Assembly (NCBI GenBank): GCA_038214535.1
Contig: JBBQRS010000003.1
Span: 16,459 to 80,458, forward strand
Source: Anaerolineae bacterium
Lineage (GTDB): Bacteria > Chloroflexota > Anaerolineae > CG2-30-64-16
Direction of reading: 5' to 3'
DNA: 64,000 bases
The notes below the pieces were generated by a model, which saw nothing but the letters and a program-made list of their open reading frames with translations, did no database searches and had not been told where the DNA came from. Below, one piece after another: positions 38,575-55,705 of this stretch (within the stretch, counting starts at the first letter, position 1; every line of letters begins with the position of its first letter). Both the position numbers and the translations under genes were made by a program.

Positions 38575-38620
38575 GCTCCCCTTCGTAGTGACGGCGTTAG
38601 CCGTCACTACGAAGGGGAGC
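38575..38620. repeat. palindromic intergenic repeat element, copy 4 (perfect 21-bp stem, 4-nt loop)
   Basis: gctccccttcgtagtgacggc gtta gccgtcactacgaaggggagc. Confidence 0.8.
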
Positions 38621-38671: not shown

Positions 38672-39553
38672 TTAGAGGCCCAGGGCCAGACGGATATCGG
38701 CCAGGGCTGCCGCCTCTTCTTCGCTGATCACTTTCTTGCCGATGCCCAGGAACCCACCTTCTTTGGAGGCTTCCGCGACGTTGGTGGCGGCTTCCAGGAG
38801 CATGGCGTTAAAGATTGCAGCCTGGTCCGGCGCTTTCGCGGCAACGGTGGCCGCGGCGGATTTGACGGTGCTCATCATCGCCGCCGGAGGCGTTTCGTTG
38901 ATGAACTTCTGCATATCCGCCACGTTGACTTCCTGGCCGTACGCCACGTTCATCAATGACCACGCCGAGCCACCCTTTTGGGCTGCGTTCAGTGTGTCAA
39001 CTACCGCGTTCGCTTCGGCAGCCGCATCCTTGCCTTTGGAAGGCGAGGCGAGCATGACCAGCGCAGCCGCGGCCATCGGTGCGAGGCGAATCTTGGCCCA
39101 TTCATCACCGGCGAACAGGGCCTTTGTAGATGCCATCCGCTCTGACGTGGACCACGAGACCAGATCCGGCGTCTGCTTGGCGGTCTGGACCCACTGCGCA
39201 ACCTCGTCATCACGCGGCACGCGCTGGTTGCCCATAGTGGTGGCCGTTTTAATCAACGTCGCGTGTAGATCGGCGGGGTTGGCTTTGGCCAGGTCCGACA
39301 CGGAGCGGATCCCTGCCCGGTTCAACATCACCGCAAAGGAAGCGCCGATGCCCTTCACGCGGGTCAGGTCGGTCTGCTCGATGATGTCATTCAGCATGCG
39401 TTCGTCAACGCCCAGCTTCTGCAGTAGAGACGCGCGTTGCGCCGGATCGGTGACGAGCATGAGCAACTGATCGGTGTCGGCGATGCCCATGGATTTGAGG
39501 ACTGCGGCGGTTTGCCCGGAGATGTTGGAGAACTCACTCAGTTTGTAGGCCAT
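38672..39553 (-). CDS. hypothetical protein with N-terminal tandem helix-hairpin-helix (DUF4332-like) region and Ala-rich C-terminal half
   Basis: 293-aa ORF; AAGGAG-type RBS 7 nt upstream of the ATG at 39553; GIG-containing HhH-like motifs (VKGIGASFAVMLNRAGIRSVSDLA). Confidence 0.5.
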   Translation of the reverse strand: MAYKLSEFSNISGQTAAVLKSMGIADTDQLLMLVTDPAQRASLLQKLGVDERMLNDIIEQTDLTRVKGIGASFAVMLNRAGIRSVSDLAKANPADLHATLIKTATTMGNQRVPRDDEVAQWVQTAKQTPDLVSWSTSERMASTKALFAGDEWAKIRLAPMAAAALVMLASPSKGKDAAAEANAVVDTLNAAQKGGSAWSLMNVAYGQEVNVADMQKFINETPPAAMMSTVKSAAATVAAKAPDQAAIFNAMLLEAATNVAEASKEGGFLGIGKKVISEEEAAALADIRLALGL

Positions 39554-39705: not shown

Positions 39706-39734
39706 TTGATTGAGGAAGAGGGTTGCGCTATACT
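39706..39734 (+). promoter_or_regulatory. sigma70-like promoter candidate (TTGATT-17 nt-TATACT) for the exonuclease / NTase-like / permease-peptidase operon
   Basis: Hexamers at 39706-39711 and 39729-39734 with a 17-nt spacer, ~45 nt upstream of ATG 39781. Confidence 0.45.
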
Positions 39735-39780
39735 GCGCTCGTACCATGAATGCCATCCCTTAGCCGAGAAATCATCCCCT

Positions 39781-40356
39781 ATGACGCGTTATCATCCCGA
39801 AGACGAAATCTTTATCTCTGTGGACATCGAAGCGGCCGGCCCCTACACGGAACGCTATTCGCTGCTGACCATCGGCGCGTGTATTGTGGATGCGCCGGAC
39901 GAGGCCTTTTACGTCGAACTGAAGCCATTAAGTTCAGACGCCACGCCGGAGGCGCTGGCAGTCACCGGGCTTTCGATGGATGAACTGGCTGCCAACGGCG
40001 TTGAGCCTGCCGAGGCCATGTTGCGCTTCGAGCAGTGGACGCTGAGCCACATCGCAAGGGGGCAACGCCCGGTCTTCGTGGCGTTTAACGCCTCGTTTGA
40101 CTGGATGTTCGTCAACGAGTATTTTCACCGTTTCCTGGGCTGTAACCCGTTCGGGCATTCGGCGCTCGATATGAAGGCGCTTTACATGGGGTTGAGCGGG
40201 GCGACCTGGTCTGAGACTTCGATGCGTTATGTCTCTGCGCGTTATCTGGAAGATTGCCAGTTGACGCATCACGCGCTGAATGACGCCCGCGATCAGGCGG
40301 AACTGTTTCGTCGGATGCTGGATGAAGCGTCAACCCACGGTTGGGGTTGGGTCTGA
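39781..40356 (+). CDS. DEDDh-family 3'-5' exonuclease (DnaQ/RNase T/oligoribonuclease-like fold)
   Basis: Exo I motif FISVDIEAAGP, Exo II FVAFNASFDWMFV, Exo III HHALNDARDQAELF (His = DEDDh subtype); ~191 aa if started at MTRYHPED. Confidence 0.75.
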   Translation: MTRYHPEDEIFISVDIEAAGPYTERYSLLTIGACIVDAPDEAFYVELKPLSSDATPEALAVTGLSMDELAANGVEPAEAMLRFEQWTLSHIARGQRPVFVAFNASFDWMFVNEYFHRFLGCNPFGHSALDMKALYMGLSGATWSETSMRYVSARYLEDCQLTHHALNDARDQAELFRRMLDEASTHGWGWV

Positions 40357-40400
40357 GCCAAAGCCGGCGCGCCGATAGCTCATACAGAAAGGTAATTGTC

Positions 40401-41738
40401 ATGGATCAGCAACAATCCTCCGAATCCGCAAATTCAGCCCTCGCGGCGCTCATCGAATCGGCCCAACGCCTGGGCGTCGAACTGGATGAAGCCGATGCCT
40501 TGCAATGGCTGACGGCCATTAGCGCATGGAAACCGGGCGACGCGCTGTCGGTTAATGATGAACTCGGCGTTTTTGGTCATCAGGTTGTCATGCTCGACTT
40601 CAACCCCGCGGAACTGGCCTATTTTCGGGAACTGGCGCGCGTGGTGGCGATTGACGATCAACCCGGCGTTATCGAGACGGCGATTGCACTGTCCGGTTCG
40701 GCGGCCCAGTCGAAAATCCAGACCTACCCCGGCGACTGCGACTTCTTCCAACGGGTGAACATTATCGCGCCGACGCGTCAGGAGGCGTGTCGCATTCTGG
40801 CGCAGGCGATGCGCGACAAGGCGTTGCAGGCAATGCGGGGTCGCACCTACCAACTCATCGAGGTGAAGTTCGGCTCGTATCCGCAAGACCTGGTGGTGGG
40901 CGATAAACTGATGAAGGCCGGTTCGCCGATTGCGTGGGGCGTCGGTGAGCTACGCGCCGGCCAGATCAACGCCTTCCTGCCCGATGATTCGCCCTATGCG
41001 TTGCAGTGGGATGATGTGGCCGATGACCCCGGTTGGTGCAAGCTGGATTGGGTCGTTGCCGATCCGCAGCGCAGCCGGTTGGCGAACGCCAGCAATATGC
41101 TGGATGTTACGTGGGAAGCGCCGGACGGCAGCATCACGCCGCTGGATGGCTACCTTGACCCCTACTTCCAGGAGGTCTATCTCGAAGCGGACTCGATTCC
41201 CATCTTCAGCAAGCTCTCCCGGCACGTTTCGGCTGATGCCCTCGACGATTACGTCGCGGCGCTCCAACGTGAAGTCCGCAAATATGTGACGAAAGACGTG
41301 AACTACGGCAAGGCGGCCAAGCGGATGTACAACGTCTTCCGGTTGACGGGGCGCTATCCCGAAGCGGCGTTCATCCGCGAGCTGTTCGACGAACCGGCGA
41401 CCATGCTTTACCAGGTTTGGTCTTTGATCCGCACCGTGGATGATTGGTACGAGACAGGTTCGAGCATTTCGCTGGAGATTGTTCTCCAGCAGACCGATCA
41501 ACTGATCCTATCGGTGATCAAGGCGCTGGAGGGCGAAGCGGAAGAGGAGATCGTTGAGGATCTGCTCCATTTCCGCGATATTCTGGTGCGTCACGGCAGC
41601 GACGAGTCGCTGACCGCGGAGGCCGAAGGCGCGCGCCAGCGGATCATCAACCTGGTGAACAACTTCTTTTATGAGCGATTGACCGCGTTGCCGCAGATTA
41701 AGCAGTACATGGAAGATATTTCAGCGGATCACGCTTGA
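40401..41738 (+). CDS. hypothetical protein with candidate Pol-beta-superfamily nucleotidyltransferase core (hG[GS]...DxD) plus large helical C-terminal domain
   Basis: AIALSGSAAQSKIQTYPGDCDFFQRVNI matches hG[GS]-x(9-13)-[DE]h[DE]h; candidate third acidic residue in QLIEVKF; 446 aa; its stop overlaps the ATG of the next gene (TGATG at 41736-41740). Confidence 0.4.
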   Translation: MDQQQSSESANSALAALIESAQRLGVELDEADALQWLTAISAWKPGDALSVNDELGVFGHQVVMLDFNPAELAYFRELARVVAIDDQPGVIETAIALSGSAAQSKIQTYPGDCDFFQRVNIIAPTRQEACRILAQAMRDKALQAMRGRTYQLIEVKFGSYPQDLVVGDKLMKAGSPIAWGVGELRAGQINAFLPDDSPYALQWDDVADDPGWCKLDWVVADPQRSRLANASNMLDVTWEAPDGSITPLDGYLDPYFQEVYLEADSIPIFSKLSRHVSADALDDYVAALQREVRKYVTKDVNYGKAAKRMYNVFRLTGRYPEAAFIRELFDEPATMLYQVWSLIRTVDDWYETGSSISLEIVLQQTDQLILSVIKALEGEAEEEIVEDLLHFRDILVRHGSDESLTAEAEGARQRIINLVNNFFYERLTALPQIKQYMEDISADHA

Positions 41739-44700
41739 TGACGGCGGCGGATGGCCTGCTTGTCGGCGAGGCTGTAAGCGAGGTCAAGCACCGGCGGGCC
41801 GGGGGTGAGGGCGTGCGTCGGGTTGTGCGGCGGCTGTTGGATACGTTGCTGATCCTTGCCGCCATTGTTTATCTTACCCAGTTCCTTCTTATCCTGGCCG
41901 CGCTGGGACGCGAGCGTCAGCCTGCCTCGTTCGTTCAGGTCGCCGGGCAGGCCCTGACGCAAAGCCTCGATTACGTCTTCCGGCATCCCCAGACTTACCT
42001 CTGGCACAAAGTCGAAACCGGCTCGTTTAACCTCGTCCTCACGACCTTCAGTCACAGCATTGGCCTGCTTTTATTATCCCTCGCCATCGCGACGGTGAGC
42101 GGCTGGGCGCTGGGGCTGCTGATGGCGCTGAGGCAGCGGCGCGCCGGTTCGATGTTCATCTTCACGCTCACCGTCCTGGGTACCTCGACTCCCAGCTTTC
42201 TGCTCGCGATGTTGCTCTGGATCATCAACATCCGGGTACACAACCGCTTTGACGTGCCCGCGCTGCCGCCCACCGGCTTCGGCTGGGACGCGCACCTGAT
42301 CATGCCCGCGCTGGTGTTGGCTGCCCGCCCGCTCGCGCAGATCGCCCAGGTGACGTATGTGCAGGTGTCGCAGGCGTTGGGGCAAGATTTCATCCGCACG
42401 GCGCACGCCAAGGGCCTCTCGGCGCGGATGGTGCGCGATCGCCACGCCATTCCCAACATTATTGCGCCGGTGCTCACCACCGTCGGCACGTCGCTGCGCT
42501 ATTCGCTTTCGAGCCTGCCGGTCGTCGAGTACTTCTTCCTGTGGCCGGGCGTTGGCTTGCTGATTTTGCAAGCCATTGACGCAGATATGCCGACGCTGGT
42601 GACCGATTCGATCGTCTGCCTCGGGCTGTTCTTTCTCGTCGTTAACTTGCTGCTGGATCTGGCGCTGCCCCTGCTGGACCCACGCCTGCGCGATACGTCT
42701 TCCAATCGCGTGGGCGTGGAAGGGATGGGGCTAAACGGGCTGAAAGAGGGCCTTGTCGGCATCTTCAACCGACAGAGGACGCGCGGCGAGACGTTGCCGC
42801 CGCTGCCCCGTTCTACGGTGAGCCGTGCGCTGCTTGAAGCCGGGGAACCGGCGGCCACTGCGCGCGCGACCTGGGCCTTCAAGGGCCTGGCGAGTAACTT
42901 ACCGCTGCTGATCGGCGGCGCGCTGGTAGTCGGCATGATTCTCGTGGGGATCTTCGCGCCCCGCCTGACCGCCGCCAATCCCTACCAGAGTCACGGCGTG
43001 ATGACGATTGACGGCGTGATCGGCGCGCCGCCATATCCGCCTTCGGACACCTTCCCGTGGGGCACGGATCATATCGGGCGCGACGTGCAGGCGTTGGTGT
43101 TGTATGGCGCGCGGCAAACGCTGCTGCTGGCCTTCTTCGGGATGCTTGCGCGCCTGGTTCTTGGGTCTATGCTGGGGGCCGTGGCCGGGTGGCAGCAGGG
43201 CGGACGGTTCGACCGGCTGGTGATGGGGGCGACGAACGTCTGGGCGGCGTTTCCCACTACGATTTTTGCGCTCCTGCTCATCCAGGGGTTGGGTATCCAG
43301 CAGGGGATGTGGGTTTTCGTCGTGGCGCTTTGTGTCGTGGGCTGGGGCGAGGTCGCGCAGACGGTGCGGCAACAGGTGATCCATATCAAGCCGCAGCTCT
43401 TCATCGAGGCCGCGCGTTCGATCGGCGCGCGGGCGTCGCGTACCCTGGCCCAACACGTTATGCCCGGTTTGTTGCCGATGTTGATCGTGCTCGGTGTGTT
43501 GGAGATGGGCGGCATCCTGATGCTGCTGGCCGAGCTCGGTTTTCTGAACACCTTCCTGGGCGGTGGATTCCGCGTGGAAATCGGCGAGGTCGGGCAGATG
43601 CAGCCGATTGTCGCCTATTTCTCCGACATTCCGGAATGGGGCGCGATGCTGGCGAACGTGCGCCAATGGTGGCGCAGCTACCCATGGATGGCGTGGTATC
43701 CGGGGGCGGCGTTCTTTCTGGCGATCCTCAGCTTTAATCTGTTTGGCGAAGGGCTGCGGCGCTTTTTCGAGCGCAGCCGGATTAATCTGGGCCGGCTCTT
43801 TGGCCGCTACGCGCTGCCCGGCGCAGTCGCCGCGACTTTGCTGCTCGTATGGCTGCTGCGCAGCGCGACGCCCCTGGCCGATTATCAGGGTTACGCGGAA
43901 TCGTTTGACGCGCAGCATGTTTTGCATGACGTCGAGACGCTGGCCTCCGCGGAGTACGGCGGTCGCGAGACGGGCACGCCGGGCGCAGAGCAGACCGTCC
44001 GATTCATCGCCGAACGGATGGCGGAGATCGGTCTGTTCCCTGCCGGCGACTCGACGCCGACCAAAGATCAGAATCCCTTCATTCAAACGCAGATTGTGGA
44101 GCGGCCTCGCCTGACCGGTGTGCCACAACTGACGATTGAAGGCGACCCCGGTGAGGCGCTGATTTACCGGGAGGACTTTGTCGAGCGGCCCGTTTCAATG
44201 CAGGAACGCGCGCAGGGCGTCGTGGTCGGCGTGGCGCTTGGCCCCGAACCGTCCGGCAGGCTCACCGATCCGTATGGGCTGGGGCGGCAAGACCTGCTCG
44301 ACAAGGTGCTGATCGTGCCGGAGGAGAACCTCGCTCGCCTGAAAACCAGTGTGCCGTCGGCGATTCTGGTGATTACACAGGACTCGCTGATGCTTGAACG
44401 GAGATTCCTGTTTCCCGGCGCTTTTGGGCGTGGAAAAACGCCTCCGCAAATGTACATCTCGCCGGAGACGTCGGATCGCCTGCTTCAGACGACGGGGACC
44501 AGCCTGGCAGAGTTCGAGAATGCCGCCGCCCAACTCGGGCCGGGCGAAGCGGTTGTGACCGGTGACGGGGTTTCGGTGACGCTGGAGATTCCGCTGTCTG
44601 CGCCGGATGGGGGCGAAACGCCTACCGTGGAATATTACAACATCATCGGGTTTATCCCCGGCAGCGGCGCGGAAATGCAAACCGAGACCGGCGCGAGCAT

Positions 44701-45298
44701 GGATAGCCAGGTTATCGTGGTTAGCGCGTATTACGATGGCCTGGGCATCGGCCCGGATGGGACGTTCTATCCTGGCGCGAATGACAACGCCAGCGGCATC
44801 GCCACGCTGTTGGAACTGGCGCGCTTGATGAAAGAGAGCCCATATCAACCCAAACGGACAATCGTGTTTGTGGCCTGGGCAGGCGGCGAGCGCAACGAAG
44901 CGCTGAGTGTGACGAGCATCATGAGCGCGAAGGTCGGGTTCAGCGGGTTGAACGTGGAGACCGTGATGGAACTGAGCGGCGTCGGCGCGGGCGACGGCAA
45001 GGCGGTGGCCTTCGGTGAAGGGAGCAGCTATCGTCTGGTGCAGCTTTACCAGAAAGCAGCGGCGCGCCTGGGGGTCGAGACGACGACGCGGGGGCGAGGC
45101 CCACACTACGCGATGCCTGACACGATGGCCTTCGGCGGCCGCGATGCGCTCTCGCTCCACGTCAGTTGGGACGGCTCCGACCGGACCGCGCACACGCCCG
45201 ATGACGCGATAGCGGCGATTGACATCGAGAAGCTGCGACAGATCGGCCAGTCGGCCATGCTCACATTAAGCGTGCTCAGCCGCGAGCCCACATATTAG
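41738..45298 (+). CDS. fusion protein: OppB/DppB-like ABC permease domain + OppC/DppC-like ABC permease domain + extra TM helix + M28-family zinc-peptidase-like domain with PA-like insert
   Basis: EAA-region AHAKGLSARMVRDRHAIPN and C-terminal LLDPRLR (OppB-like); PWGTDHIGRDVQALVLYGARQT and second EAA region (OppC-like); hydrophobic YALPGAVAATLLLVWLL after the permease; C-terminal SAYYDGLGIGPDGTFYPGANDNASGIATLLELAR...WAGGER...HTPDDAIAAIDIEKL (M28-like). Confidence 0.7.
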   Translation: MTAADGLLVGEAVSEVKHRRAGGEGVRRVVRRLLDTLLILAAIVYLTQFLLILAALGRERQPASFVQVAGQALTQSLDYVFRHPQTYLWHKVETGSFNLVLTTFSHSIGLLLLSLAIATVSGWALGLLMALRQRRAGSMFIFTLTVLGTSTPSFLLAMLLWIINIRVHNRFDVPALPPTGFGWDAHLIMPALVLAARPLAQIAQVTYVQVSQALGQDFIRTAHAKGLSARMVRDRHAIPNIIAPVLTTVGTSLRYSLSSLPVVEYFFLWPGVGLLILQAIDADMPTLVTDSIVCLGLFFLVVNLLLDLALPLLDPRLRDTSSNRVGVEGMGLNGLKEGLVGIFNRQRTRGETLPPLPRSTVSRALLEAGEPAATARATWAFKGLASNLPLLIGGALVVGMILVGIFAPRLTAANPYQSHGVMTIDGVIGAPPYPPSDTFPWGTDHIGRDVQALVLYGARQTLLLAFFGMLARLVLGSMLGAVAGWQQGGRFDRLVMGATNVWAAFPTTIFALLLIQGLGIQQGMWVFVVALCVVGWGEVAQTVRQQVIHIKPQLFIEAARSIGARASRTLAQHVMPGLLPMLIVLGVLEMGGILMLLAELGFLNTFLGGGFRVEIGEVGQMQPIVAYFSDIPEWGAMLANVRQWWRSYPWMAWYPGAAFFLAILSFNLFGEGLRRFFERSRINLGRLFGRYALPGAVAATLLLVWLLRSATPLADYQGYAESFDAQHVLHDVETLASAEYGGRETGTPGAEQTVRFIAERMAEIGLFPAGDSTPTKDQNPFIQTQIVERPRLTGVPQLTIEGDPGEALIYREDFVERPVSMQERAQGVVVGVALGPEPSGRLTDPYGLGRQDLLDKVLIVPEENLARLKTSVPSAILVITQDSLMLERRFLFPGAFGRGKTPPQMYISPETSDRLLQTTGTSLAEFENAAAQLGPGEAVVTGDGVSVTLEIPLSAPDGGETPTVEYYNIIGFIPGSGAEMQTETGASMDSQVIVVSAYYDGLGIGPDGTFYPGANDNASGIATLLELARLMKESPYQPKRTIVFVAWAGGERNEALSVTSIMSAKVGFSGLNVETVMELSGVGAGDGKAVAFGEGSSYRLVQLYQKAAARLGVETTTRGRGPHYAMPDTMAFGGRDALSLHVSWDGSDRTAHTPDDAIAAIDIEKLRQIGQSAMLTLSVLSREPTY

Positions 45299-45299
45299 A

Positions 45300-45366
45300 C
45301 CTTCGTAGTAACGGCTTTAGCCGTAGAAACCCCGACAGAGCGACTGAAGTCGCAACTACAAAGGGG
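45300..45366. repeat. palindromic intergenic repeat element, copy 5 (imperfect), between convergent genes
   Basis: ccttcgtagtaacggctttagccgt ... gcgactgaagtcgcaactacaaagggg. Confidence 0.7.
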
Positions 45367-45380
45367 GTGATTGTGGTTAC

Positions 45381-47141
45381 TTACGGCGACGGCAGCCGCC
45401 AATACTGGAATTGCGGGGCGCCGAACGCCGGATACTCAAACGTGACGCCGGACTTGACCAGCAGCGTCCGATCATAGAATTGCAACGGCGCGACCACGGC
45501 CGCTTCATTGAGCAGGAGGCGTTCGGCCTCGCGGTACAATTCGGTGCGCGCCGCCTCATCGGTTTCGACGCGTGCCTTCAGCATCAACTCCTCGTAGGCG
45601 GGTGACTCCCAACCCGTATACTGGAAAGCGGAGCGCGGGCTGAAAACAACGTCCAGGAGGCTTGACGGATCGGCGTAGTCCATTACCCAGCCCATGCGAT
45701 AAAGGTTATAGGAGCATTGGGCGGGCGAACTCGCGGCGCTTCGATTGGGGGCATTGCAGGCATCCAGCGTGTTCCGATGCACGTCCCAACTGCTGCTGAC
45801 CAGACGCACCGGGATGCCGACCTCTTCCAGCATCCCTGCAATCGCCTTAAACAGCAATTCATTGTTTCCTTCCCGGTTGTACCATAGCTCGACCGGCGGC
45901 GGGTTCTTCTCGTTGAAGCCGGCCAGCGCCAGGAACTCGCGCGCCTTTTGCAGGTCGTAGGCATAACCGACTGACGGGTCATCACCCTGAAAGCCGACAA
46001 TCCCCGGCGGCACGACGACCTGCGCAGACACGTGCCACGGTTGTTCGAGCACGTTCGCGATGAGCGCGTCGCGATCAATGGCGCTGACGATGGCGCGCCG
46101 GACGTTGACATCCAGCGTGGGGGTGATCTGCGTGTTGATGCCCAGATAACTGGTCCCCGGCTGCACCAGCACCTGTAGCTCCTGGGCGAACGTCGGGTCG
46201 GCCTGGATGCGTGGGGTCTGCTCGGCGGGGAACTGCGCGACATAGAAATCGCCTGCTTCGTAACGGCTCAACTGCTCGGCGGCGTCAGGGACCAACGGGA
46301 ATTCGATGCGCTCGATGGTCACGGCGTCAGCGTTCCAGTAGTTGGGGTTTTTCACCAGGGTCAGCCCTTCGCCGGGCGTCCATTGATCCAGAAGGTAGGG
46401 GCCGTTGGTGATCCGGCCGGGTTCACCCAGGTCGGCGCGGTAGGGCAGGAAGGCGCGAAACGCCAGCAGGCCGGGGAGGAAGCTCGCCGGGCGTTCCAGT
46501 GTAATGGTGAGCGTGCGTTCATCGGCGGCCTTGAACCCCACCGTGTTACAGTCGGCTACGTCGCCGGCAGCGAAATCGTGCGCCCCGGTGATCGCCAGCA
46601 CCTCGGTCAGCAGATAGTAATAGCTGTTGCCGGTCGTTGGTTCCAACAGGCGACATAAGCCGTCCACGTAATTCTGGGCGGTGAGCGGCGCGCCGTCCGA
46701 CCATGTGACGCCGGAGCGCAACGTGACGGTGTAGGTCTGGCTGTCGGGTGAAACGGTGTACTCTGTGGCGGCCGCAGGTTCGATCGCGCCGTCGCCGCGC
46801 AGATGGAACAGGCCCTCGTAGAGTTGTTCGACCACCAACCCCGCCGTCTCGTCTACCGCCTTCTGCGGGTCCAGCGACGCGGGCGCGGCCGTCAGGGGAT
46901 ACACCAGGGTTCCGGCCGGCGCGTTGATCCGGGAGACGTATATGGGCGTCGGTACGGGAGTGGCGGTGACGACCACCGTCACTTCGACAGACTGCGTTTC
47001 CACCACCACCTGCGTCTGCATCACGGGTACTTCGACTGTGACCGGCGCCGTTGCCGTTTCAGGGTCAGAGCCACACGCCGCAAGCAGCAGGGCGGCCGCG
47101 AACAGCCATATTCCCACAAATCCTCTGACCTTTGTCACCAC
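45381..47141 (-). CDS. ABC transporter substrate-binding lipoprotein, family 5 (OppA/DppA-like), paralog 3
   Basis: Signal peptide plus lipobox LLLAACGS, Pro/Thr/Val linker, SBP_bac_5-like body; GTG start with AGGAGG RBS. Confidence 0.8.
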   Translation of the reverse strand: MVTKVRGFVGIWLFAAALLLAACGSDPETATAPVTVEVPVMQTQVVVETQSVEVTVVVTATPVPTPIYVSRINAPAGTLVYPLTAAPASLDPQKAVDETAGLVVEQLYEGLFHLRGDGAIEPAAATEYTVSPDSQTYTVTLRSGVTWSDGAPLTAQNYVDGLCRLLEPTTGNSYYYLLTEVLAITGAHDFAAGDVADCNTVGFKAADERTLTITLERPASFLPGLLAFRAFLPYRADLGEPGRITNGPYLLDQWTPGEGLTLVKNPNYWNADAVTIERIEFPLVPDAAEQLSRYEAGDFYVAQFPAEQTPRIQADPTFAQELQVLVQPGTSYLGINTQITPTLDVNVRRAIVSAIDRDALIANVLEQPWHVSAQVVVPPGIVGFQGDDPSVGYAYDLQKAREFLALAGFNEKNPPPVELWYNREGNNELLFKAIAGMLEEVGIPVRLVSSSWDVHRNTLDACNAPNRSAASSPAQCSYNLYRMGWVMDYADPSSLLDVVFSPRSAFQYTGWESPAYEELMLKARVETDEAARTELYREAERLLLNEAAVVAPLQFYDRTLLVKSGVTFEYPAFGAPQFQYWRLPSP

Positions 47142-47300
47142 ATTGCCTCCTGGCCTCGCGACATTATTCTACAGCAGAATAGCATAAACTGACTGACTGG
47201 AAAAGAGACGCCGGGCTGAGCGGGCAGGTTCCCCCGCCCATACAGCCCGGCGTCAGGAGCCGGTTTGTTCTAAGCAAACCGGCTCCGCGTCTTCAGGACT

Positions 47301-49127
47301 CTATTCGATGACCCACTTTTCGTATTGATCGTAGCCGGTGATCGAGACCAGGCTCCGCACGTTCGGGCGTACCAGCCGCGGGCTGCGATACCAGTAGAGC
47401 GGCGCAATGACTGCCTCATCCTCTATCAGGATCTTCTCGGCATCAGCGTAGAGCGCCATGCGCTTCACCGGGTCAGTTTCGAGGGCTGCTTGCTGCCAGA
47501 GCGCATCATAAGCGTCGCTTTGCCAGTCAACAACATCCGCATACCCACCGCCCTTGCCGAAGACGTCCGCCGTGAAGTTGTTGGCGTCAGGATAGTCTTG
47601 CACCCAACTGCCGCGGTAGATGTTCTCGTTGCCTTCCCGACGTTGCGTCAGGTAGACTTTCCACTCCTGGTTGGACAGTTTGGCGTCGATCCCCAGGACG
47701 TCTTTCCACATCCCTTGAATCGCCTCGGCGCGTTGCTGATGTGACTCGGAGGTGTTGAACATCAGCGTTACCTGGACCTGATCCGCTGTGATGCCCTTCT
47801 CCGTCAGATATTCATCCAGAAGGGCTTTTGCCCCTTCGGGGTCATACTTGACGCCCAGATCGGGGTAACTTTCTTCCTGCGGTGAACCCGCAGCACCGGG
47901 ATGTGAGAACCACTGCGCCGGCAGGCCGCTGCCCTTGTTGACGTTATCTACCAGCGATTTGCGATCAATCGCCATGGACAGCGCCTTGCGCACGCGTGCG
48001 TCATCCGTGGGGGCTTTCTGCGTATTGAAGGCGTAGAACTCGGTACCGATGGTGTACGTGAAGTCCACCATATCCTTATACTCCGGATCGGTGGTCATGC
48101 GGTCCATGTCGCCTGAGGGAATGCCGGACACATCCAGATTTCCCGCTTCGAACTCCGCCAGCCCCGGGCTGGCGTCCAACATCACCCAGCGAAGTTCATC
48201 AATTGTGGCCTGCGGCGCGGATTCGATCCCGGGCCAGAACGGATTCTTAATCAGCGAGATGCTGTCGTCGTGGATCCATTCCTTCAGGGTGTAAGGCCCG
48301 TAGCCCTGGTAGAAGCCTTGCTCGGTCCAGCGCTCGCCGCGCGCATCGGTGCAGTCATCGCCATCAATCAGCCAGCTCGGTTGCGCGTGCGCCACCCACA
48401 GGCCCAGGATGTTCAGGTTGTAAATCGCGGGCGAGGTGACTTGGATTTCCAGCGTCCTGGGGTCAATCGCTCTGACGCCGACTTTTGCGGTATCGGTCAC
48501 TGTACCATCGTTAAAATCGGCTGCGCCGACGATGACGGGATTCAAGACATAGGCATAGTCGGAGGCCGTCAGCGGGTCGAGGGTGCGCAGGATGCCGTAG
48601 ACGAAATCGTCGGCTGTGACCATGCGATCGTTGCCGTCGCAATCCTGAACTTTCACCACCTGTCCCGACGCGGCGTCGTATTTGACCCAGGGAACACCCT
48701 CAAGGATAGTGAACGTGTAGGTCAGGCCGTCGTCTGAGACGCTATATTCGGCGGCCATGCCTTTTTCGAGCTGGGCCGTCTCTGCGTTTTGCCGCGTGAG
48801 CCCGACGGTCGCTTCTTCAATAATTTGAACGCTGGCAGCTGCTACGGCCAGCGCCGTGTCAATCGTGGGGATGTCGCCGGGGCCCATGTTCATGCGCAGA
48901 GTCTGGACGCCGGAAGTCGCAGCCACAGGTACAGGCGTAACTTCCACGATCTTTTCGACTTCTTTCTGCACTTCGACGACCTGGGTCTGAACGACTTCAA
49001 CCTGCTTCTCGACGACCTGGGTCACGACCTTTTCGACGACCTGCGGAGCAGGCGCCGCGCAGCCGGATACGATCAGGGCTGCGAGCAACAACACGGAACC
49101 GAACTGCAAGAGTCTGTGATGTTTCAT
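47301..49127 (-). CDS. ABC transporter substrate-binding lipoprotein, family 5, paralog 2
   Basis: MKHHRLLQFGSVLLLAALIVSGCAAP lipoprotein signal, repetitive VVEK/VVQTQVVEVQKEVEKIVEVT linker, OppA-like body; start at internal ATG 49127. Confidence 0.8.
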   Translation of the reverse strand: MKHHRLLQFGSVLLLAALIVSGCAAPAPQVVEKVVTQVVEKQVEVVQTQVVEVQKEVEKIVEVTPVPVAATSGVQTLRMNMGPGDIPTIDTALAVAAASVQIIEEATVGLTRQNAETAQLEKGMAAEYSVSDDGLTYTFTILEGVPWVKYDAASGQVVKVQDCDGNDRMVTADDFVYGILRTLDPLTASDYAYVLNPVIVGAADFNDGTVTDTAKVGVRAIDPRTLEIQVTSPAIYNLNILGLWVAHAQPSWLIDGDDCTDARGERWTEQGFYQGYGPYTLKEWIHDDSISLIKNPFWPGIESAPQATIDELRWVMLDASPGLAEFEAGNLDVSGIPSGDMDRMTTDPEYKDMVDFTYTIGTEFYAFNTQKAPTDDARVRKALSMAIDRKSLVDNVNKGSGLPAQWFSHPGAAGSPQEESYPDLGVKYDPEGAKALLDEYLTEKGITADQVQVTLMFNTSESHQQRAEAIQGMWKDVLGIDAKLSNQEWKVYLTQRREGNENIYRGSWVQDYPDANNFTADVFGKGGGYADVVDWQSDAYDALWQQAALETDPVKRMALYADAEKILIEDEAVIAPLYWYRSPRLVRPNVRSLVSITGYDQYEKWVIE

Positions 49128-49280
49128 CGTTTCTCCTTCTCCTTTATGTGAAATAGTTGGCTGACGGTTGATATGACAACTGCCTGATGGTCGCAATCGC
49201 ACTTACCGACAGGCAGTCGGCAGAGGTTTGGCTTGCATCCACCAGGCAGTCATCTTTGGGCCTTATGGAGGGGGTATGGC

Positions 49281-50300
49281 TTACTGCGTGCCGCGCATCC
49301 GCGGGTCGAGTGCGTCGCGCAAGCCATCGCCCAGGAAGTTGAACGCGAACATGGTGATCGCCAGCGCCAGGGCCGGGAAGACTGTTTGATTCGGATACGT
49401 GCGCACCACGCGCGAGCCGTCCGAGATCATCGAACCCCAGGAAGGCGTGGGCGGGTTGACGCCCAGACCGATGAAGGACAGGAATGCCTCCGTGGTGATG
49501 TATGCCGGAATGGCGAGCGTTTCAGCGACGATCAGGGGGCCGAGGATGTTGGGCAGGATGTGCTTGAACATGATGCGCACATGGCCCGCGCCGATGGTGC
49601 GCGCCGCCTCGATGTACTCTTTCTGGCGCACCGACAACACCTGCCCACGGGTCAACCGGGCCATCGTCTCCCACGCCGTCAAGCCAATGCCGACAAAGAT
49701 AAACAACAGACCGCCCATCTTCGCGTCTATGGCGTTGACTTGATACAAGAATGTGCCTGGGTCCGGTTTCGAGCCGCGAAAGAAGGCCATCAACAGGATG
49801 ATGAATAGCAGGCTGGGGAAACCGTAGAGCACATCTACGATACGCATCATGATGTTATCAACGCGTCCCCCGGCATACCCCGAAATGCTGCCGAATACCA
49901 CCCCGATCATCAAGCTGAGGAGCGGGCCGATCAGCGCGACGGTCAGCGAGACGCGCGCACCATAGACAATGCGACTGTAAAGGTCACGCCCCACGTAATC
50001 TGCGCCCAACGGGTACGCGTTGCTGATCTTGGCGTAGCCTTGCATGCTGGGGAAAACGGTCAGCATCCACTGTGGGACCTTGTTGTTATCTACTAGCGTC
50101 TGATCGGCATACGGCTTGAGTGCGAAGACGGGAGCAAAAATCGCCATCGTCGCGAGGATCGCGATGGTGATCAGGCCCAGGACGGCCGCTTTGTTCTTGA
50201 AAAGACGCCGGATGGCATCCCGCCAGAGGCTTTCACTTTTACGCGTCGGTGAGAGACCTCCCGCAATTGTTGTGGTCGCTGCTTGTGATTCAACCGCCAC
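49281..50300 (-). CDS. peptide ABC transporter permease, OppC/DppC-like
   Basis: N-terminal OppC_N-like region, ADYVGRDLYSRIVYGARVSL motif, EAA region. Confidence 0.85.
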   Translation of the reverse strand: MAVESQAATTTIAGGLSPTRKSESLWRDAIRRLFKNKAAVLGLITIAILATMAIFAPVFALKPYADQTLVDNNKVPQWMLTVFPSMQGYAKISNAYPLGADYVGRDLYSRIVYGARVSLTVALIGPLLSLMIGVVFGSISGYAGGRVDNIMMRIVDVLYGFPSLLFIILLMAFFRGSKPDPGTFLYQVNAIDAKMGGLLFIFVGIGLTAWETMARLTRGQVLSVRQKEYIEAARTIGAGHVRIMFKHILPNILGPLIVAETLAIPAYITTEAFLSFIGLGVNPPTPSWGSMISDGSRVVRTYPNQTVFPALALAITMFAFNFLGDGLRDALDPRMRGTQ

Positions 50301-50315
50301 AGTGGCCTCCTGAGG

Positions 50316-51374
50316 TTAAGTATACCTGATCCGAGGATCGAGGAATGCGTACATGATATCCACCACCAGGTTCGCAAGCACCAGAAACACCGCGAAGAGC
50401 AGGATGGTTCCCATGATGACCGGATAGTCGCGATTGGTGATGCTGGTGACGAAGTACTTGCCCATGCCCGGAATGCCGAAAATCTGCTCGGTAACGAACG
50501 TGCCGGTGAGCAGGGCGGCAAACATCGGCCCCAGGATCGTGATGACGGGGATCATGGAGTTGCGCATGGCGTGTCGGGTGATGACTTTGTTCTCTTTAAG
50601 GCCCTTCGCCCGCGCCGTGCGGATATAGTCTTCGCGGGTCACCTGCAGAAGGCTGGCGCGGGTGAGGCGGGCGATGATGGCGGAGCTGGCCAGCCCTAGA
50701 GCGATCGCCGGCATGATGGCATGTTGGAAGAACGGGATATAGGGCGGGCGCGGGAAGACGCCCAGGATGAACGGCGGTTTGGCTCCCCAACCTGTCGGTG
50801 GCAGCCACTTCAGAGACACGCCGAAGATCCACACCATAATTGGCCCCAGCACGATCACCGGCACGGAGACGCCGAAAATCGCGACGCTCATGCCCAGATA
50901 ATCCCATACGGTGTTCTGGCGCAACGCCGAAAGGATGCCCAGCGGCAGGCCGATCAGTAAAGCCACGGCAAGCGCCAGGCTGCCAAGCTGGATCGAAATG
51001 GGCAATTGCTGCTTGAAAATATCGTTGACGGTGCGGCTACGCGAGGCGTATGAGGGGCCAAAGTTCATCCACTTCAGCCAGCGGCCTTCGCCGACGGGGA
51101 TATTGAAAAGAAAATCGTCGCGCAGCGAAGTGCCCGGCGGGACGCTGGATATACGCGGGATCAGAATGTCGTAGACATAGCGCCCATACTGCATGGGGAG
51201 GGGTTCATCAAGATGATACCGCTCTTCGAGGTTCTTCTTGATTTCTTCCGGCACCGGTTTTTCTTTATCAAACGGGCCGCCGGGAACTGCGTGCATCAAC
51301 CCAAACGTGATCATGGAAATCACCATGATCACCAGGAGGTTCCACAGCATACGGCGAATCATGTAATTGACCAT
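50316..51374 (-). CDS. peptide ABC transporter permease, OppB/DppB-like
   Basis: MVNYMIRRMLWNLLVIMVISMITF N-terminus, long first periplasmic loop, EAA motif ARAKGLKENKVITRHAMRN, C-terminal FLDPRIRYT. Confidence 0.85.
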   Translation of the reverse strand: MVNYMIRRMLWNLLVIMVISMITFGLMHAVPGGPFDKEKPVPEEIKKNLEERYHLDEPLPMQYGRYVYDILIPRISSVPPGTSLRDDFLFNIPVGEGRWLKWMNFGPSYASRSRTVNDIFKQQLPISIQLGSLALAVALLIGLPLGILSALRQNTVWDYLGMSVAIFGVSVPVIVLGPIMVWIFGVSLKWLPPTGWGAKPPFILGVFPRPPYIPFFQHAIMPAIALGLASSAIIARLTRASLLQVTREDYIRTARAKGLKENKVITRHAMRNSMIPVITILGPMFAALLTGTFVTEQIFGIPGMGKYFVTSITNRDYPVIMGTILLFAVFLVLANLVVDIMYAFLDPRIRYT

Positions 51375-51528
51375 TCTGAAAATCCTGTTTGAATCGGTTC
51401 AGACTCGGCGTGGCAAATGCCTGGCCAATCTGAAGGTTTTAGAATCTCGGACGGCTTTATTATTGTGAAGCCGTCCGAAATTGGAGTAACCTGGGGAGAA
51501 GGCTCTCCCCAGGTTCACAGTCGCTAGA

Positions 51529-53367
51529 CTACTTGATGTCCCACTTGTTGTACGCTTGCTTGCCGCCGAGGACGGAGAAGGTCCGCTCGATGTTCGGCTT
51601 GGTCACGGCAACAGAGGTGTACCAGTAGATCGGGGCGATCACGGCATCGGTCTTGACGAACAGTTCTTCTGCGTCGGCGTACATTTGCACGCGCTTCGCC
51701 GGGTCCTGCTCGCGGGCCGCAGCCACGACCATCTCTTCGAAGGTCGGGTTGTCATAGTTCACGCCGCCGCCTTCCGCCGTGTTGGCCGAACCGCCCTTGA
51801 CGAAGACCTCACGAATGAAGTTGTTCGCGTCGGGGTAGTCCTGGCACCAGCCGAGGCGGTAGATCTGCGGTGTGTTCTCGGGGTCGCGGATGGTCTTCAG
51901 GTAGACTTGCCATTCCTGGCTGGTTATTTTGACATCCAGGTTCAGGTTGTCTTTCCACATCTGCTGAATCGCTTCCGCGATCTGCTGATGGCCCGAAGAG
52001 GTGTTGAACATCAGGGTGATGTCCAGTTGGTCAAGCGTCAGGCCCTTCTCGTCCAGGTAGGACTGAAGGTCGGCCTTGGCGGCCTCAGGATCGAACTTGA
52101 CGCCCAGGTCGGGGAAGTCGGCGATGGTCGGCGCGCCGGCCAGGCCGGGGCGAGAGAACCACTGCGCGGGTTCCTGGTCGCCCTTCAGGACGTTGTCAAT
52201 CAGGCTCTGGCGGTCAATGGACTGCGAGAGCGCACGGCGCACGCGGGCGTCGTCCACAAACTTGGCTTTGTTGTTGAAGCCGTAGTAGTAAGTGCAGAGG
52301 TTGGGGGAGATGTTCAACTCGGCCGACAGGGTCGGGTCTGCCTTGACGCGCTCGAGGTCCTGGCTTGGCACCGCGGCAACATCCAGGTTGCCCGCTTCGT
52401 ACTCGGCGAAGGCCGGCACGTCGTCCAACATGCTCCAGGTGAGTTGGTCAATCTTGGCTTCCGGCACGGCATCGGTGCCGACGAAGAACGGATTCTTGAC
52501 GAGCGTGATGCTGGCGTCATGGATCCATTCTTTCAGGGTGTATGGGCCGTAGCCCTGGAAGAAACCGGTCTCGGTCCAGCGTTCGCCGCGGGCGTCAGTG
52601 CAGTCGTCGCCCTCGATGATCCACTTGGGTTGCGCGTTCGCGACCCACAGGCCGATGATGTTCGCGTTGAAGGCGGCCGGTTCCTTGAAGGTGACTTCAA
52701 GGGTCGTGGGGTCAATGGCCTTGACGCCGACGGTCGCCGTATCGGTCACGGCGCCGGTGTTGAACTCTTCCGCGCCCTTAACCACGAATGACAGCACGTA
52801 CGCGTAGTCAGAGGCCGTCGCGGGGTTGAGGGTGCGCAGGATGCCATATTCGAAATCTTGCGCGGTGACCATGCGGTCATTGCCGTCGCAGTCCATGACC
52901 TTCTCAACGGAGTCGGTCGTGGAGTTGTACTTCACCCACGGCACGTCGTCGCGCAGGTGGAAGGTGTAGACCGTACCATCATCCGAGATGTCCCAGGTTT
53001 TTGCAATCCCGGGCTTGATTTCGGTGGTGACTTCGTCCTGGAACGTCACACCGCCCATCGTCATGGCGACGATCTGCGTGGATGACGTGTCGGTGGACAA
53101 CGCCGGGTCAATCGTGGGGATGTCGCCGGGGCCCATGTTCAGGTACAAGGTCTTCGGGCCAACGGGCGGCACCGCGGTGACCTCAACGATTTTCTCGACT
53201 TCCTTCTGAACTTCGACGACCTGGGTCTGAACGACCTGTACTTCCTTCTCTACAACCTGAGTCACGATCTTCTCAACGGTCTGCGCGGCCGGGGCAGCAC
53301 AGGCGGTGACGATCATGCTGGCAATCATCAGCAGACTCAGGAAGCTGAACAAGCGCTTCGCGGGCAT
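51529..53367 (-). CDS. ABC transporter substrate-binding lipoprotein, family 5, paralog 1
   Basis: MPAKRLFSFLSLLMIASMIVTACAAP lipoprotein signal, same repetitive linker as paralog 2, OppA-like body; ATG 53367 preceded by GGAGG RBS. Confidence 0.8.
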   Translation of the reverse strand: MPAKRLFSFLSLLMIASMIVTACAAPAAQTVEKIVTQVVEKEVQVVQTQVVEVQKEVEKIVEVTAVPPVGPKTLYLNMGPGDIPTIDPALSTDTSSTQIVAMTMGGVTFQDEVTTEIKPGIAKTWDISDDGTVYTFHLRDDVPWVKYNSTTDSVEKVMDCDGNDRMVTAQDFEYGILRTLNPATASDYAYVLSFVVKGAEEFNTGAVTDTATVGVKAIDPTTLEVTFKEPAAFNANIIGLWVANAQPKWIIEGDDCTDARGERWTETGFFQGYGPYTLKEWIHDASITLVKNPFFVGTDAVPEAKIDQLTWSMLDDVPAFAEYEAGNLDVAAVPSQDLERVKADPTLSAELNISPNLCTYYYGFNNKAKFVDDARVRRALSQSIDRQSLIDNVLKGDQEPAQWFSRPGLAGAPTIADFPDLGVKFDPEAAKADLQSYLDEKGLTLDQLDITLMFNTSSGHQQIAEAIQQMWKDNLNLDVKITSQEWQVYLKTIRDPENTPQIYRLGWCQDYPDANNFIREVFVKGGSANTAEGGGVNYDNPTFEEMVVAAAREQDPAKRVQMYADAEELFVKTDAVIAPIYWYTSVAVTKPNIERTFSVLGGKQAYNKWDIK

Positions 53368-53555
53368 TTTTCTCCTCCTAAAGAGAGAATGTAGGATGGT
53401 TTTCGTTTGCCGGCAGGCTGCCCATACCCCGTGGGGCGGGCGATGGCCGACGCTGACGGGTGAGCGTTGGTTAGAACTTAGCGATTCGGAACACCACCTC
53501 CTCTCCAAAAGCGCCGGCCTGTCTCAGGCCAAATGGTGTTCGTTGCCTGACGCAG

Positions 53556-54593
53556 TTATTCCTGCGGGTACAACCAGCAGGCCACAAAATGTCCCTCGCC
53601 ATAATCCCGGAACGCAGGCTCCCGGTCGTGGCAGACGTCCATAACTTTGGGGCAACGCGTGCTGAAGTTGCACCCCAAGGGTGGATTCACCGGTGAGGGC
53701 ACGTCCCCTTCCAGGATGATGCGTTGGCGCTTTTCCTCAATCACCGGATCCGGGATCGGCACGGCAGAGAGCAACGCTTGCGTGTACGGGTGCATCGGGT
53801 TGCGATACAACTCTTCCCGATCGGCCAATTCCATGATCTTGCCCAGATACATCACGGCGATCCGATCCGAGATGTGACGTACCACCGACAGATCATGGGC
53901 GATGAAGAGATAGGTCAACCCCAGTTGGTCTTGCAAGTCTTCCAACAGGTTGATGACCTGCGCCTGAATGGAGACATCCAGGGCGGAAATCGGCTCGTCG
54001 CACACGATGAAGGACGGATTGACGGCGAGGGCGCGCGCCACGCCAATACGCTGGCGTTGGCCGCCCGAGAACTCGTGCGGGTAGCGGTTAATGAAATAGG
54101 GGTTCAGGCCGACAACCGCCAACAACTCGCGCACACGTTCCAGGCGCTCCGCCTTGGTGCCGATATTATGGACTTCCAGCGGCTCGCCGACGATGTTGCC
54201 CACCGTCATGCGCGGGTTCAGCGACGCATAGGGATCCTGGAAGATCATTTGCATCTCGCGGCGCATGGCGCGCATCTCATCGCTCTTGAGCTTGGTTAAG
54301 TCTGTGCCGTTGTAAATAACCTCGCCGTCCGTGGGCTTATAGAGCTGTAAGATCGCCCGCCCGGTGGTGGATTTGCCACAACCCGATTCGCCCACCAGGC
54401 CGAGCGTTTCGCCCTTGATGATATCAAATGAAATGCCGTCCACGGCCTTCACGTCACCGACGCGACGCTGTAGCAGGCCCCGGTTAATGGGGAACCACAT
54501 GCGCAGATCCTTGACTTGCAGGATCTTGTCGCGGCCGTTCTGTGGCCCGTGAGGGTCCGTATCCGTAACTGTAAGGGCTGGAGTTGAAGTCAC
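53556..54593 (-). CDS. peptide ABC transporter ATP-binding protein (OppF/DppF-like)
   Basis: Walker [10 protein letters not shown], signature [14 protein letters not shown], Walker [14 protein letters not shown]-terminal oligopeptide-transporter extension. Confidence 0.85.
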
Positions 54594-55597
54594 GCTGTTA
54601 TACCTTGTGTTGCCGTTCTCACATCCACCCAGCAGGCCACTTTGTGGCCCGGTGAAACCGGTTCGAGAGCCGGGTTTTCGGTAGCGCAGTGTTCAATCCG
54701 ATAATGGCAACGCGCATAAAATGGGCAACCCACAGGAAGATCAATCAAATCAGGCGGGAGCCCTTCGATGGATGTCAGGCGATGACCGCGTTCTGCATCG
54801 AGGCGCGGGAGAGAACCCAACAGGCCGATGGTATAGGGATGACGCGGATTGGCATACAGGTCTTTGACCGGCGCTTCTTCCACAATAAAACCGGCGTACA
54901 TCACGATGACCCGGTCCGCCAATCCGGCGACGACGCCCAGATCATGCGTAATCCAGATGATCGCCATGCCGATTTCATCGCGCAGCCGGTTCACCAGGTC
55001 GGTGATCTGAGCCTGAATGGTCACATCCAGCGCGGTGGTTGGTTCATCGGCGATGAGCAATTGCGGGTTGCAACTCAGACCCATCGCGATCATCACGCGT
55101 TGGCGCATACCGCCGGAAAACTGATGTGGATAATCGTCGAGGCGGTCAGCCGCATGGGGAATGCCGACCAGCTCCAGAAGCTCGGCGGTGCGCTGCCGCG
55201 CCGCCTCTTTATTCATCCCCATATGCAGCATCAAGGCTTCAGAAATCTGATAGCCGATGGTCAGAACCGGGTTGAGGGAAGTCATCGGATCCTGGAAGAT
55301 CATCGCGATCCGATTCCCGCGCACCTGACGCATTTCCTCGTCCGGCATCGTGATGAGGTTTTTGCGGGCTTCCCCGGCCCCAAACCACACCTCTCCGCCG
55401 GTAATCTTGCCGGGCGGCTGAGGAATGAGGCGCAGAAGTGACATGACGCTGACACTTTTGCCGCAACCGCTTTCCCCAACGATGGCAAGGGTCTCGCCCT
55501 CGTCAACGGTATAGGAAATCCCGTTAACCGCGTGGACAACGCCGTCCTGGGTGAAGAAGCGCGTCTCCAACCCCTTCACCTCGAGCAATCTACTCAT
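54590..55597 (-). CDS. peptide ABC transporter ATP-binding protein (OppD/DppD-like)
   Basis: Walker [11 protein letters not shown], signature [14 protein letters not shown], Walker [13 protein letters not shown]; start placed at internal [10 protein letters not shown] preceded by GGAGGGGAAG RBS (the ORF could extend to 55654). Confidence 0.8.
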
Positions 55598-55705
55598 CCA
55601 CTTCCCCTCCGGCCCGGATAAACTGAATATGGTAGGCAAGCCCGATGATAACATACGCGAAAAATCGTGTCAAATCATCTTTGAATTTAAGCCCACAAAT
55701 AGAGA

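Follow-up and report, generated by a model that had tools for sequence, protein, structure and literature searches.

Within the analyzed window, a 64,000-nucleotide stretch of contig JBBQRS010000003.1 from an Anaerolineae genome (GCA_038214535.1), two adjacent genes on the forward strand, here termed exoA and ntB (the names are used for genes and products alike), encode an exonuclease of the family known as Cap18 or Exo from cyclic oligonucleotide-based antiphage signaling systems (CBASS) and a nucleotidyltransferase (NTase) from a family without annotation. Together the two genes make up a chromosomal cassette that is conserved in the class Anaerolineae. With a probability of about 0.4, we propose that a short nucleotide product, possibly 2'-5'-linked, is synthesized by ntB and broken down by exoA. 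A third gene following on the same strand (gene 3), which a first-pass annotation of the sequence had joined with exoA and ntB into one operon, does not belong to the conserved unit. The features on which the argument rests are the following (all on the forward strand):

39706 to 39734, predicted sigma-70-type promoter-like site TTGATT-17-TATACT, agreeing with the consensus at 9 of 12 positions
39781 (ATG) to 40356 (TGA), exoA (gene 1), 191-aa DEDDh exonuclease, Cap18 / CBASS 'Exo' family
40401 (ATG) to 41738 (TGA), ntB (gene 2), 445-aa nucleotidyltransferase, Mg662 / virophage-like class
40695 to 40862, catalytic segment of ntB with G99-S100 (40695-40700), D112 (40734-40736), D114 (40740-40742) and E154 (40860-40862)
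41738 (ATG) to 45298, gene 3, fused OppB-like and OppC-like ABC (ATP-binding cassette) permease with a C-terminal M28 peptidase

Organization and conservation of the exoA-ntB pair

The promoter-like element ahead of the three genes, the intergenic gap of 44 nt between exoA and ntB and the TGATG sequence, in which the ntB stop codon and the ATG of gene 3 share one base, are all present as described in the first-pass annotation. Of the gene lengths given there, 191 aa holds for exoA, while ntB comprises 445 instead of 446 aa and gene 3 reaches 1187 aa when read from a TTG at 41735 and 1186 aa when read from the ATG. The promoter-like site is located 46 nt 5' of the exoA start codon, with positions 39729-39781 spanning the -10 box to the ATG, and its -35 and -10 hexamers are also present in the closest relative (locus L007). 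A GAAAGG Shine-Dalgarno motif lies 8 nt 5' of the ntB start, and terminator-like sites are absent from both junctions of the three genes. When the sequences 5' of exoA in 58 loci were screened for k-mers, only -10-like TATAAT boxes and no LexA-type or other common operator emerged. In many Anaerolineae loci (L016, L024-L028, L037, L049, L061, L062, L065, L068, L074 and L087) the exoA ATG is situated 5-12 nt past a perfect TATAAT, a short distance that suggests leaderless mRNAs.

Gene neighborhoods were compared for the best 80 species-level ntB loci, 77 of which extend far enough upstream to judge the presence of exoA. In 61 of these 77 loci (79%), exoA is found directly 5' of ntB on the same strand; order and strand are constant throughout the pairs, and in the median only about 100 nt lie between the aligned end of exoA and the ntB start. 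Clustering of all adjoining open reading frames revealed no other neighbor in more than 28 of the 80 loci (at most 35%). The next most common neighbors are a convergent glycyl-tRNA synthetase (28 loci), followed by DnaG and RpoD, which reflects the housekeeping synteny of one sub-lineage. Overall, the genes around the pair include dnaG, rpoD, glyQS and nuo, and the position 3' of ntB is taken in other genomes by a GH4 glycosidase (overlapping by 4 nt), a peptidase S58 gene or a convergent glyQS.

These data also bear on the view that exoA and ntB are independent conserved genes which remain neighbors through inherited synteny and do not share a function. It is true that the surrounding synteny (dnaG-rpoD upstream, glyQS downstream) has likewise been inherited in a subset of the genomes and that ntB occurs without exoA in some clades. 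However, the large difference in frequency between the pair and any other neighbor, the constant order and strand with short gaps, and the independent recurrence of a Cap18-type exonuclease beside an NTase in CBASS, in Acinetobacter even in the same order, render mere adjacency very unlikely.

exoA and the Cap18 family of exonucleases

Sequence comparison places gene 1 in the Cap18 / 'Exo' DEDDh family. Its product matches the PADLOC model for the CBASS 'Effector / Exonuclease' (PDLC00753) with an E-value of 4.2e-71 and 236 bits over profile positions 4-181 of 184, as compared with 282-286 bits for confirmed CBASS exonuclease copies. In searches against the PDB, Cap18 from E. coli (7T2S) was matched with 1.3e-51 and about 48% identity and RNase T with about 6e-5, and the matches to Pfam and NCBIfam models (RNase T / DnaQ-type and Rv2179c-like exoribonucleases) are weak. 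The assignment as a DEDDh exonuclease that had been made in the first-pass annotation is borne out by residues D15, E17, D107, H163 and D168, which align with D12, E14, D104, H160 and D165 of E. coli Cap18, the last of these being the position changed in the published catalytically dead Cap18.

A tblastn search of plasmids retrieved exoA-like sequences in 97 records (39-55% identity), and exoA is 45-55% identical to exonucleases within plasmid-borne type II and type III CBASS operons. Five close plasmid matches were inspected and all proved to reside inside or next to CBASS genes. The loci from Klebsiella, Pseudomonas and Acinetobacter represent type II CBASS with genes for a SAVED or HNH effector, a CD-NTase (cGAS/DncV-like nucleotidyltransferase), E1/E2 and JAB proteins, and the Acinetobacter plasmid exhibits the gene order exonuclease followed by NTase. 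In Agrobacterium and Bradyrhizobium, the exonuclease gene is located 3' of genes for an AAA ATPase and another protein, the latter matching the PADLOC model for a CBASS TIR effector in the case of Agrobacterium; this arrangement is probably type III CBASS. A Cap18-like exonuclease of 39% identity encoded on a Chondrinema litorale plasmid (locus L096, 4995-5513) stands alone beside an antirepressor gene and an insertion sequence element, without CBASS genes and without ntB, and the family thus also occurs in contexts other than CBASS.

In a neighbor-joining tree, the exonucleases from Anaerolineae and those from CBASS form sister clades, with a median identity of 56% inside each clade and 47% between the two. 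Only two alignment columns separate the clades; the two have in common the DEDDh residues, the greater part of the conserved core and the pocket residues P21, N103 and F124. For three CBASS Exo homologs including that from E. coli upec-117, selective cleavage of 2'-5'-linked linear dinucleotide intermediates and of 2'-5'-oligoadenylate (2-5A) has been reported in a 2026 preprint, according to which DNA or RNA nuclease activity was not detectable for the S. marcescens enzyme, hydrolysis by Exo sets the activation threshold for the cyclase and Exo also acts on intermediates of human cGAS (bioRxiv 10.1101/2025.03.04.641389).

ntB is a Pol-beta-fold nucleotidyltransferase

Homologs of ntB fall into more than 6000 clusters (698 clusters at the 50% identity level), and relatives occur in at least 589 species-representative genomes. 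Neither Pfam, NCBIfam, PADLOC nor PHROG models match the protein, apart from one insignificant CARF match (E = 0.016), sequence and profile searches against the PDB yielded no meaningful match, and no description of the ntB family or of the exoA-ntB pair was found in the literature. The segment 'ALSGSAAQSKIQTYPGDCDFF' contains G99-S100 and D112-x-D114, residues that are invariant in both ntB alignments (A1 and A2); in the alignment extending down to 26% identity, W36, R76, D235, D249, K304, R308, Y310 and N311 are invariant as well. Position 154 is acidic (E or D) in 18 of 19 diverse members, making E154 the putative third carboxylate. This set of motifs fits the hG[GS] ... DxD ... E pattern of Pol-beta NTases, and to judge from the retained catalytic residues ntB looks active as an NTase.

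In the AlphaFold2 model of ntB (pLDDT, the predicted local distance difference test score, of 77.8 overall and above 90 in the core), the Pol-beta NTase core, into which a beta-rich element is inserted, lies between an N-terminal helical region and a helical C-terminal domain that terminates in a four-helix bundle; GS, DxD and E154 sit on the expected strand-helix-strand of the core. When this model was compared with the PDB using Foldseek, Mg662 from Megavirus chilensis (4AMS, 4XUL, 4AMQ) was the only significant match (3e-6 to 9e-6). Among predicted viral structures, 15 proteins from giant viruses and virophages were matched at E <= 1e-3 (best 4e-13) and no phage protein significantly; the best matches stem from Zamilon, a Mimivirus relative, Pithovirus ('nucleotidyl transferase'), a protein named 'V21 virophage-like', two lake virophages (Yellowstone Lake and Qinghai Lake) and mavirus. 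On the basis of these matches to the PDB and to viral models, ntB is assigned to the Mg662 class of NTases. The Pol-beta NTase-like core (hGS...DCD) that had been recognized in the first-pass annotation is therefore real.

Further structural matches, i.e., AadA, a CD-NTase, OASL and MiD51, are found at E = 0.08-0.7; those to ClCdnE, OASL and MiD51 (E = 0.2-0.7, probability at most 0.15) reflect generic fold likeness only. A CD-NTase identity of ntB was considered and rejected: the best CD-NTase fold match has E = 0.2 with a TM-score of 0.19-0.25, profile-profile alignment with hhalign gave a probability of 0.1%, and there is no match to a PADLOC 'Cyclase' or Pfam model, whereas the PADLOC cyclase models match control CD-NTases encoded beside plasmid-borne Cap18 genes with 1e-190 to 1e-226. 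The CD-NTase control alignment (A3) contained two TIR effectors, and the weight of the hhalign result is therefore carried mainly by the three genuine cyclases and the PADLOC controls. Profiles and structures of class I and class II CCA-adding enzymes and poly(A) polymerases (PolyA_pol, tRNA_NucTransf2 and others) did not match ntB either.

A few ntB-like proteins differ in architecture. P0228 (1291 aa) carries the ntB-like domain C-terminal to AbfB, F-box-associated, C-type lectin and PLAT domains, P0169 (1067 aa) carries it C-terminal to a PQQ-type beta-propeller, and P0198 and P0218 possess hydrophobic N-termini; these proteins could be sensor-NTase fusions or secreted forms. In the metagenomic protein P0162 (213 aa), an exoA-like N-terminal part is joined to a segment from the middle of ntB. 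This protein is probably a chimera caused by assembly or a frameshift and was not used as Rosetta-stone evidence for a fusion of the two proteins.

Housekeeping or defense character of the pair

When the same genomes are compared, the median pairwise identity amounts to 68% for ntB and 55-58% for exoA, as against 62-63% for GlyRS, DnaG and RpoD, and ntB is 60-73% identical among the best 80 species-level loci. The exoA-ntB pair looks vertically inherited. The patchy and mobile distribution typical of defense systems is not found for ntB, which is spread over at least 589 species of a single lineage, has no match in the plasmid collection and has no relative among the viral contigs of IMG/VR. 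Neither the genes of the window nor the 61 orthologous loci contain a cyclase or an effector near exoA, and Cap2/Cap3 or HORMA/TRIP13 genes are absent from the cassette. Because an adjoining effector is lacking, inheritance appears vertical and conservation resembles that of core informational genes, a role in housekeeping signaling or nucleotide metabolism is most likely, and not one in abortive infection.

It follows that the analogy to nucleotide-second-messenger immunity, which had been drawn in the first-pass annotation for all three genes, can be retained for one of them only. In the PADLOC run, exoA matches the CBASS exonuclease model and falls into the Cap18 family, while ntB and gene 3 match nothing, ntB is not a CD-NTase and gene 3 shows only permease and peptidase domains in Pfam and NCBIfam; apart from the exoA family, the features of the locus, i.e., core-gene neighbors, no effector and no ntB on plasmids or viral contigs, are unlike those of a defense system. 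A two-gene anti-phage or stress sensor could still be envisaged in which ntB would act as a synthase of an immune signal like a CD-NTase or OAS and exoA as a threshold-setting Cap18, with one or several effectors encoded remotely or with overactivity of ntB being toxic by itself. Several findings agree with such a sensor, namely the location of the closest plasmid-borne exoA relatives outside Anaerolineae in or beside CBASS genes (in the five cases inspected), the fusion of distant ntB-like domains to lectin, F-box-associated, PLAT and beta-propeller domains as possible sensors, and the occurrence of structural relatives of ntB in conflict-prone elements, the giant viruses and virophages. Nevertheless, we judge it improbable, as no conserved effector is found nearby, the pair lies outside defense islands, a vertical-looking conservation above that of RpoD is atypical for defense genes, and neither plasmids, viral contigs nor PADLOC models yield a match to ntB.

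Proposed function of exoA and ntB

Intact active sites that are kept together across the class, combined with an exonuclease family whose characterized members act on small products or intermediates of NTases, lead us to propose a synthase and a hydrolase of one signal or metabolite in housekeeping use. In this proposal, ntB would use nucleoside triphosphates to form a short nucleotide product, i.e., a linear or cyclic di- or oligonucleotide that is plausibly 2'-5'-bonded, and exoA would hydrolyze this product or a released intermediate and in this way set the product level. Families, folds, conserved catalytic motifs, gene linkage and gene context are shown by the present data, whereas what ntB produces, what exoA acts on and which role the pair has in the cell are matters that we infer.

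A number of observations weigh against such a pair. In 16 of the 77 loci, which fall into a few ntB clades, an adjoining exoA is lacking, and distant ntB proteins from Thermomicrobiales and other Chloroflexota (30-46% identity) likewise occur without exoA, in housekeeping contexts; ntB is therefore not strictly dependent on exoA in cis. Clustering of the neighbors in the 80 loci revealed no conserved effector near the pair. E. coli Cap18 is said to possess non-specific 3'-5' exonuclease activity on DNA. A literature search for Mg662, its structures 4AMQ/4AMS/4XUL and virophage V21 as an NTase found no published function and, as Mg662 and the virophage relatives are uncharacterized, the fold of ntB is silent on the product. 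Finally, an offset in numbering, instead of an alignment with published sequences from V. cholerae or S. marcescens, was used to place the residues for 2'-5' selectivity, and the 2'-5' selectivity of Cap18-type enzymes itself stands on one preprint (bioRxiv 10.1101/2025.03.04.641389).

Alternatively, both proteins could serve in the metabolism of RNA or DNA 3'-ends. In such an end-maturation or repair cassette, ntB would add untemplated nucleotides in the manner of CCA-adding, poly(A)-forming or tailing enzymes and exoA would trim them like RNase T or Orn. The size and predicted layout of ntB, an NTase head with a long helical body, resemble those of template-independent RNA nucleotidyltransferases, exoA also resembles RNase T and Rv2179c-like exoribonucleases, though less closely, and conservation at housekeeping level together with synteny with dnaG, rpoD and glyQS would be in line with this function, as would the non-specific activity ascribed to E. 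coli Cap18. On the other hand, exoA is much nearer to Cap18 (1e-51) than to RNase T (6e-5), DNA or RNA nuclease activity was not detectable for the S. marcescens Exo (bioRxiv 10.1101/2025.03.04.641389), and neither sequence nor profile searches relate ntB to CCA-adding enzymes of class I or II or to poly(A) enzymes. We consider a 3'-end function somewhat unlikely.

If, as we propose, the pair makes and degrades a nucleotide signal, ntB would represent a new class of synthase and chemistry so far tied to immunity would be in housekeeping use. It would furthermore provide a pointer to the origin of the CBASS accessory exonuclease and a first functional clue for the giant-virus Mg662 and virophage proteins. 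It is conceivable, albeit doubtful, that ntB founds a new class of nucleotide-signal synthases of Chloroflexota, giant viruses and virophages, that a 2'-5' messenger serves as a core non-immune signal in Anaerolineae, that exoA-ntB is the original setting of the Cap18 exonuclease taken up later by CBASS or the reverse, and that viral Mg662/V21-like enzymes make or mimic a similar molecule in eukaryotic hosts. Should the two proteins act on RNA ends instead, they would constitute a new core RNA-processing activity in a major, little-studied bacterial class. In either case, a family of more than 6000 clusters is more conserved than the primary sigma factor and yet without annotation, Pfam model or characterized relative, and its Cap18-type partner, from a family newly tied to selective 2'-5' hydrolysis in CBASS, gives a handle on the ntB product. 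The exoA-ntB pair is robust and widespread, and its function is what we infer from the properties of the two enzymes.

Gene 3 and other features of the locus

The window has a GC content of about 62%, the nearest relatives belong to Chloroflexota, mostly Anaerolineae, and a nuo operon is situated upstream of the region with exoA, ntB and gene 3. A scan of the window against Rfam found no RNA family. In addition to the features listed above, the following were recorded:

38575 to 38620, REP-like (repetitive extragenic palindromic) perfect 21-bp hairpin (inverted repeat I3), 5' of the divergent DUF4332 gene; a genome-wide dispersed repeat, not specific for the locus
38672 to 39553, reverse strand, 293-aa DUF4332 / helix-hairpin-helix protein, divergent from the pair
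45300 to 45365, two REP-like palindromic units 3' of gene 3
1598-1651, 9340-9393, 13136-13155, 38575-38620 and 45300-45365, dispersed intergenic REP-like units of the window
45384 to 55654, reverse strand, complete opp-type ABC operon for three family-5 binding proteins, OppB, OppC and two ATPases, converging on gene 3
55787 to 56590, DUF4397 protein, beyond the opp operon

In gene 3, Pfam detects BPD_transp_1 (PF00528, 3.4e-44, two stretches) and Peptidase_M28 (PF04389, 8.8e-22), and NCBIfam models of the OppB and OppC type (Opp/Nik) match residues 98-320 and 386-678. Apart from domains of ABC permeases and M28/M20 peptidases, neither database detects anything in the protein, a known signal-sensor domain included, and a PADLOC match is lacking. 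The architecture is common in Chloroflexota, with at least 649 clusters at E <= 1e-20, the 120 best of which are 50-70% identical. An additional M20 domain is found in homologs of about 1690 aa and a CoaE (dephospho-CoA kinase) domain in those of about 1425 aa. Orthologs of gene 3 stand alone after a his operon or beside trpA (loci L097 and L098) and usually have no adjoining gene for an ATPase or a binding protein.

In the first-pass annotation, exoA, ntB and gene 3 had been taken for one operon, in which a signal synthase and an accessory nuclease would be combined with a 1187-aa membrane effector in a CBASS-like manner. The three genes do lie on the same strand with the TGATG overlap, in this genome and in its 89%-identical relative, and the exonuclease is a true relative of Cap18. 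However, whereas the comparison of neighborhoods confirmed the exoA-ntB pair, a permease-M28 gene was found beside ntB in none of the 80 species loci and solely in that closest relative, and this lack of co-occurrence effectively refutes the three-gene unit. Elsewhere, ntB abuts or overlaps the GH4 or peptidase S58 gene or faces convergent glyQS, the permease-M28 protein is a common stand-alone protein of Chloroflexota in varied contexts without PADLOC match or signal-sensor domain, and ntB is no CD-NTase, which leaves a CBASS-like operon of three genes with hardly any credibility. Gene 3 appears to be a common permease-peptidase of Chloroflexota in its own right, co-transcribed with the pair in this lineage by chance. 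Peptide uptake or processing, which had been put forward as an alternative for the whole operon, is reasonable for gene 3 alone because a complete opp operon faces it, and does not apply to exoA and ntB.

The block had also been described as bracketed by palindromic repeats. Such repeats do exist at 38575-38620 and 45300-45365. They belong, however, to a set of REP-like units with a consensus of about GTAGTGACGGCTTCAGCCGT, which lie between genes, frequently as inverted pairs, and of which eight were seen in the window against none expected by chance. Since the repeats are dispersed and intergenic and the upstream copy is located beyond the divergent DUF4332 gene, which is kept beside the pair in the closest relative only, the bracketing has no special meaning and the palindromes were rejected as module boundaries. 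The units 3' of gene 3 may serve as a transcript-end hairpin.

Comparison with known systems

With regard to domain composition, gene 3 corresponds to the Opp/Dpp/Nik permeases (OppB, OppC) and to M28 aminopeptidases and faces an opp operon; unlike in these systems, two permeases and a peptidase are joined in one chain of 1186 aa. The closest structural relatives of ntB, Mg662 and its virophage homologs, come from viruses of eukaryotes, share only 9-16% sequence identity with ntB, so that the relationship is undetectable by sequence, and have no known exonuclease partner. The combination of RNase T or Orn with a CCA-adding enzyme resembles the pair in that exoA belongs to the RNase T / Orn lineage of DEDDh exonucleases, ntB has a head and a helical body of similar size and the character is that of housekeeping enzymes.

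OAS and cGAS (Mab21-type) and their counterparts, the 2'-5' phosphodiesterases, share with exoA-ntB the concept of a Pol-beta-fold NTase that makes 2'-5' linkages and a dedicated degrading enzyme. The likeness of OAS and cGAS to ntB resides at the level of the generic fold and a 2'-5' product of ntB is purely conjectural. The eukaryotic 2'-5' phosphodiesterases belong to other enzyme classes than exoA.

The logic proposed for exoA and ntB is the one reported for CBASS Exo (Cap18) and cGAS-like cyclases, and it parallels other synthase/phosphodiesterase pairs of nucleotide signaling. Cap18 from CBASS (E. coli upec-117, S. marcescens, V. cholerae; 7T2S) is an exonuclease of the same family as exoA with the same DEDDh core and an adjoining NTase. 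In contrast to CBASS, the partner ntB is not a CD-NTase, the pair is chromosomal and more conserved than RpoD, and the Anaerolineae exonucleases form their own sister clade. What is new here in comparison with CBASS is a dedicated Cap18-type hydrolase that is combined with a different class of NTase, without an effector and with the character of core genes.

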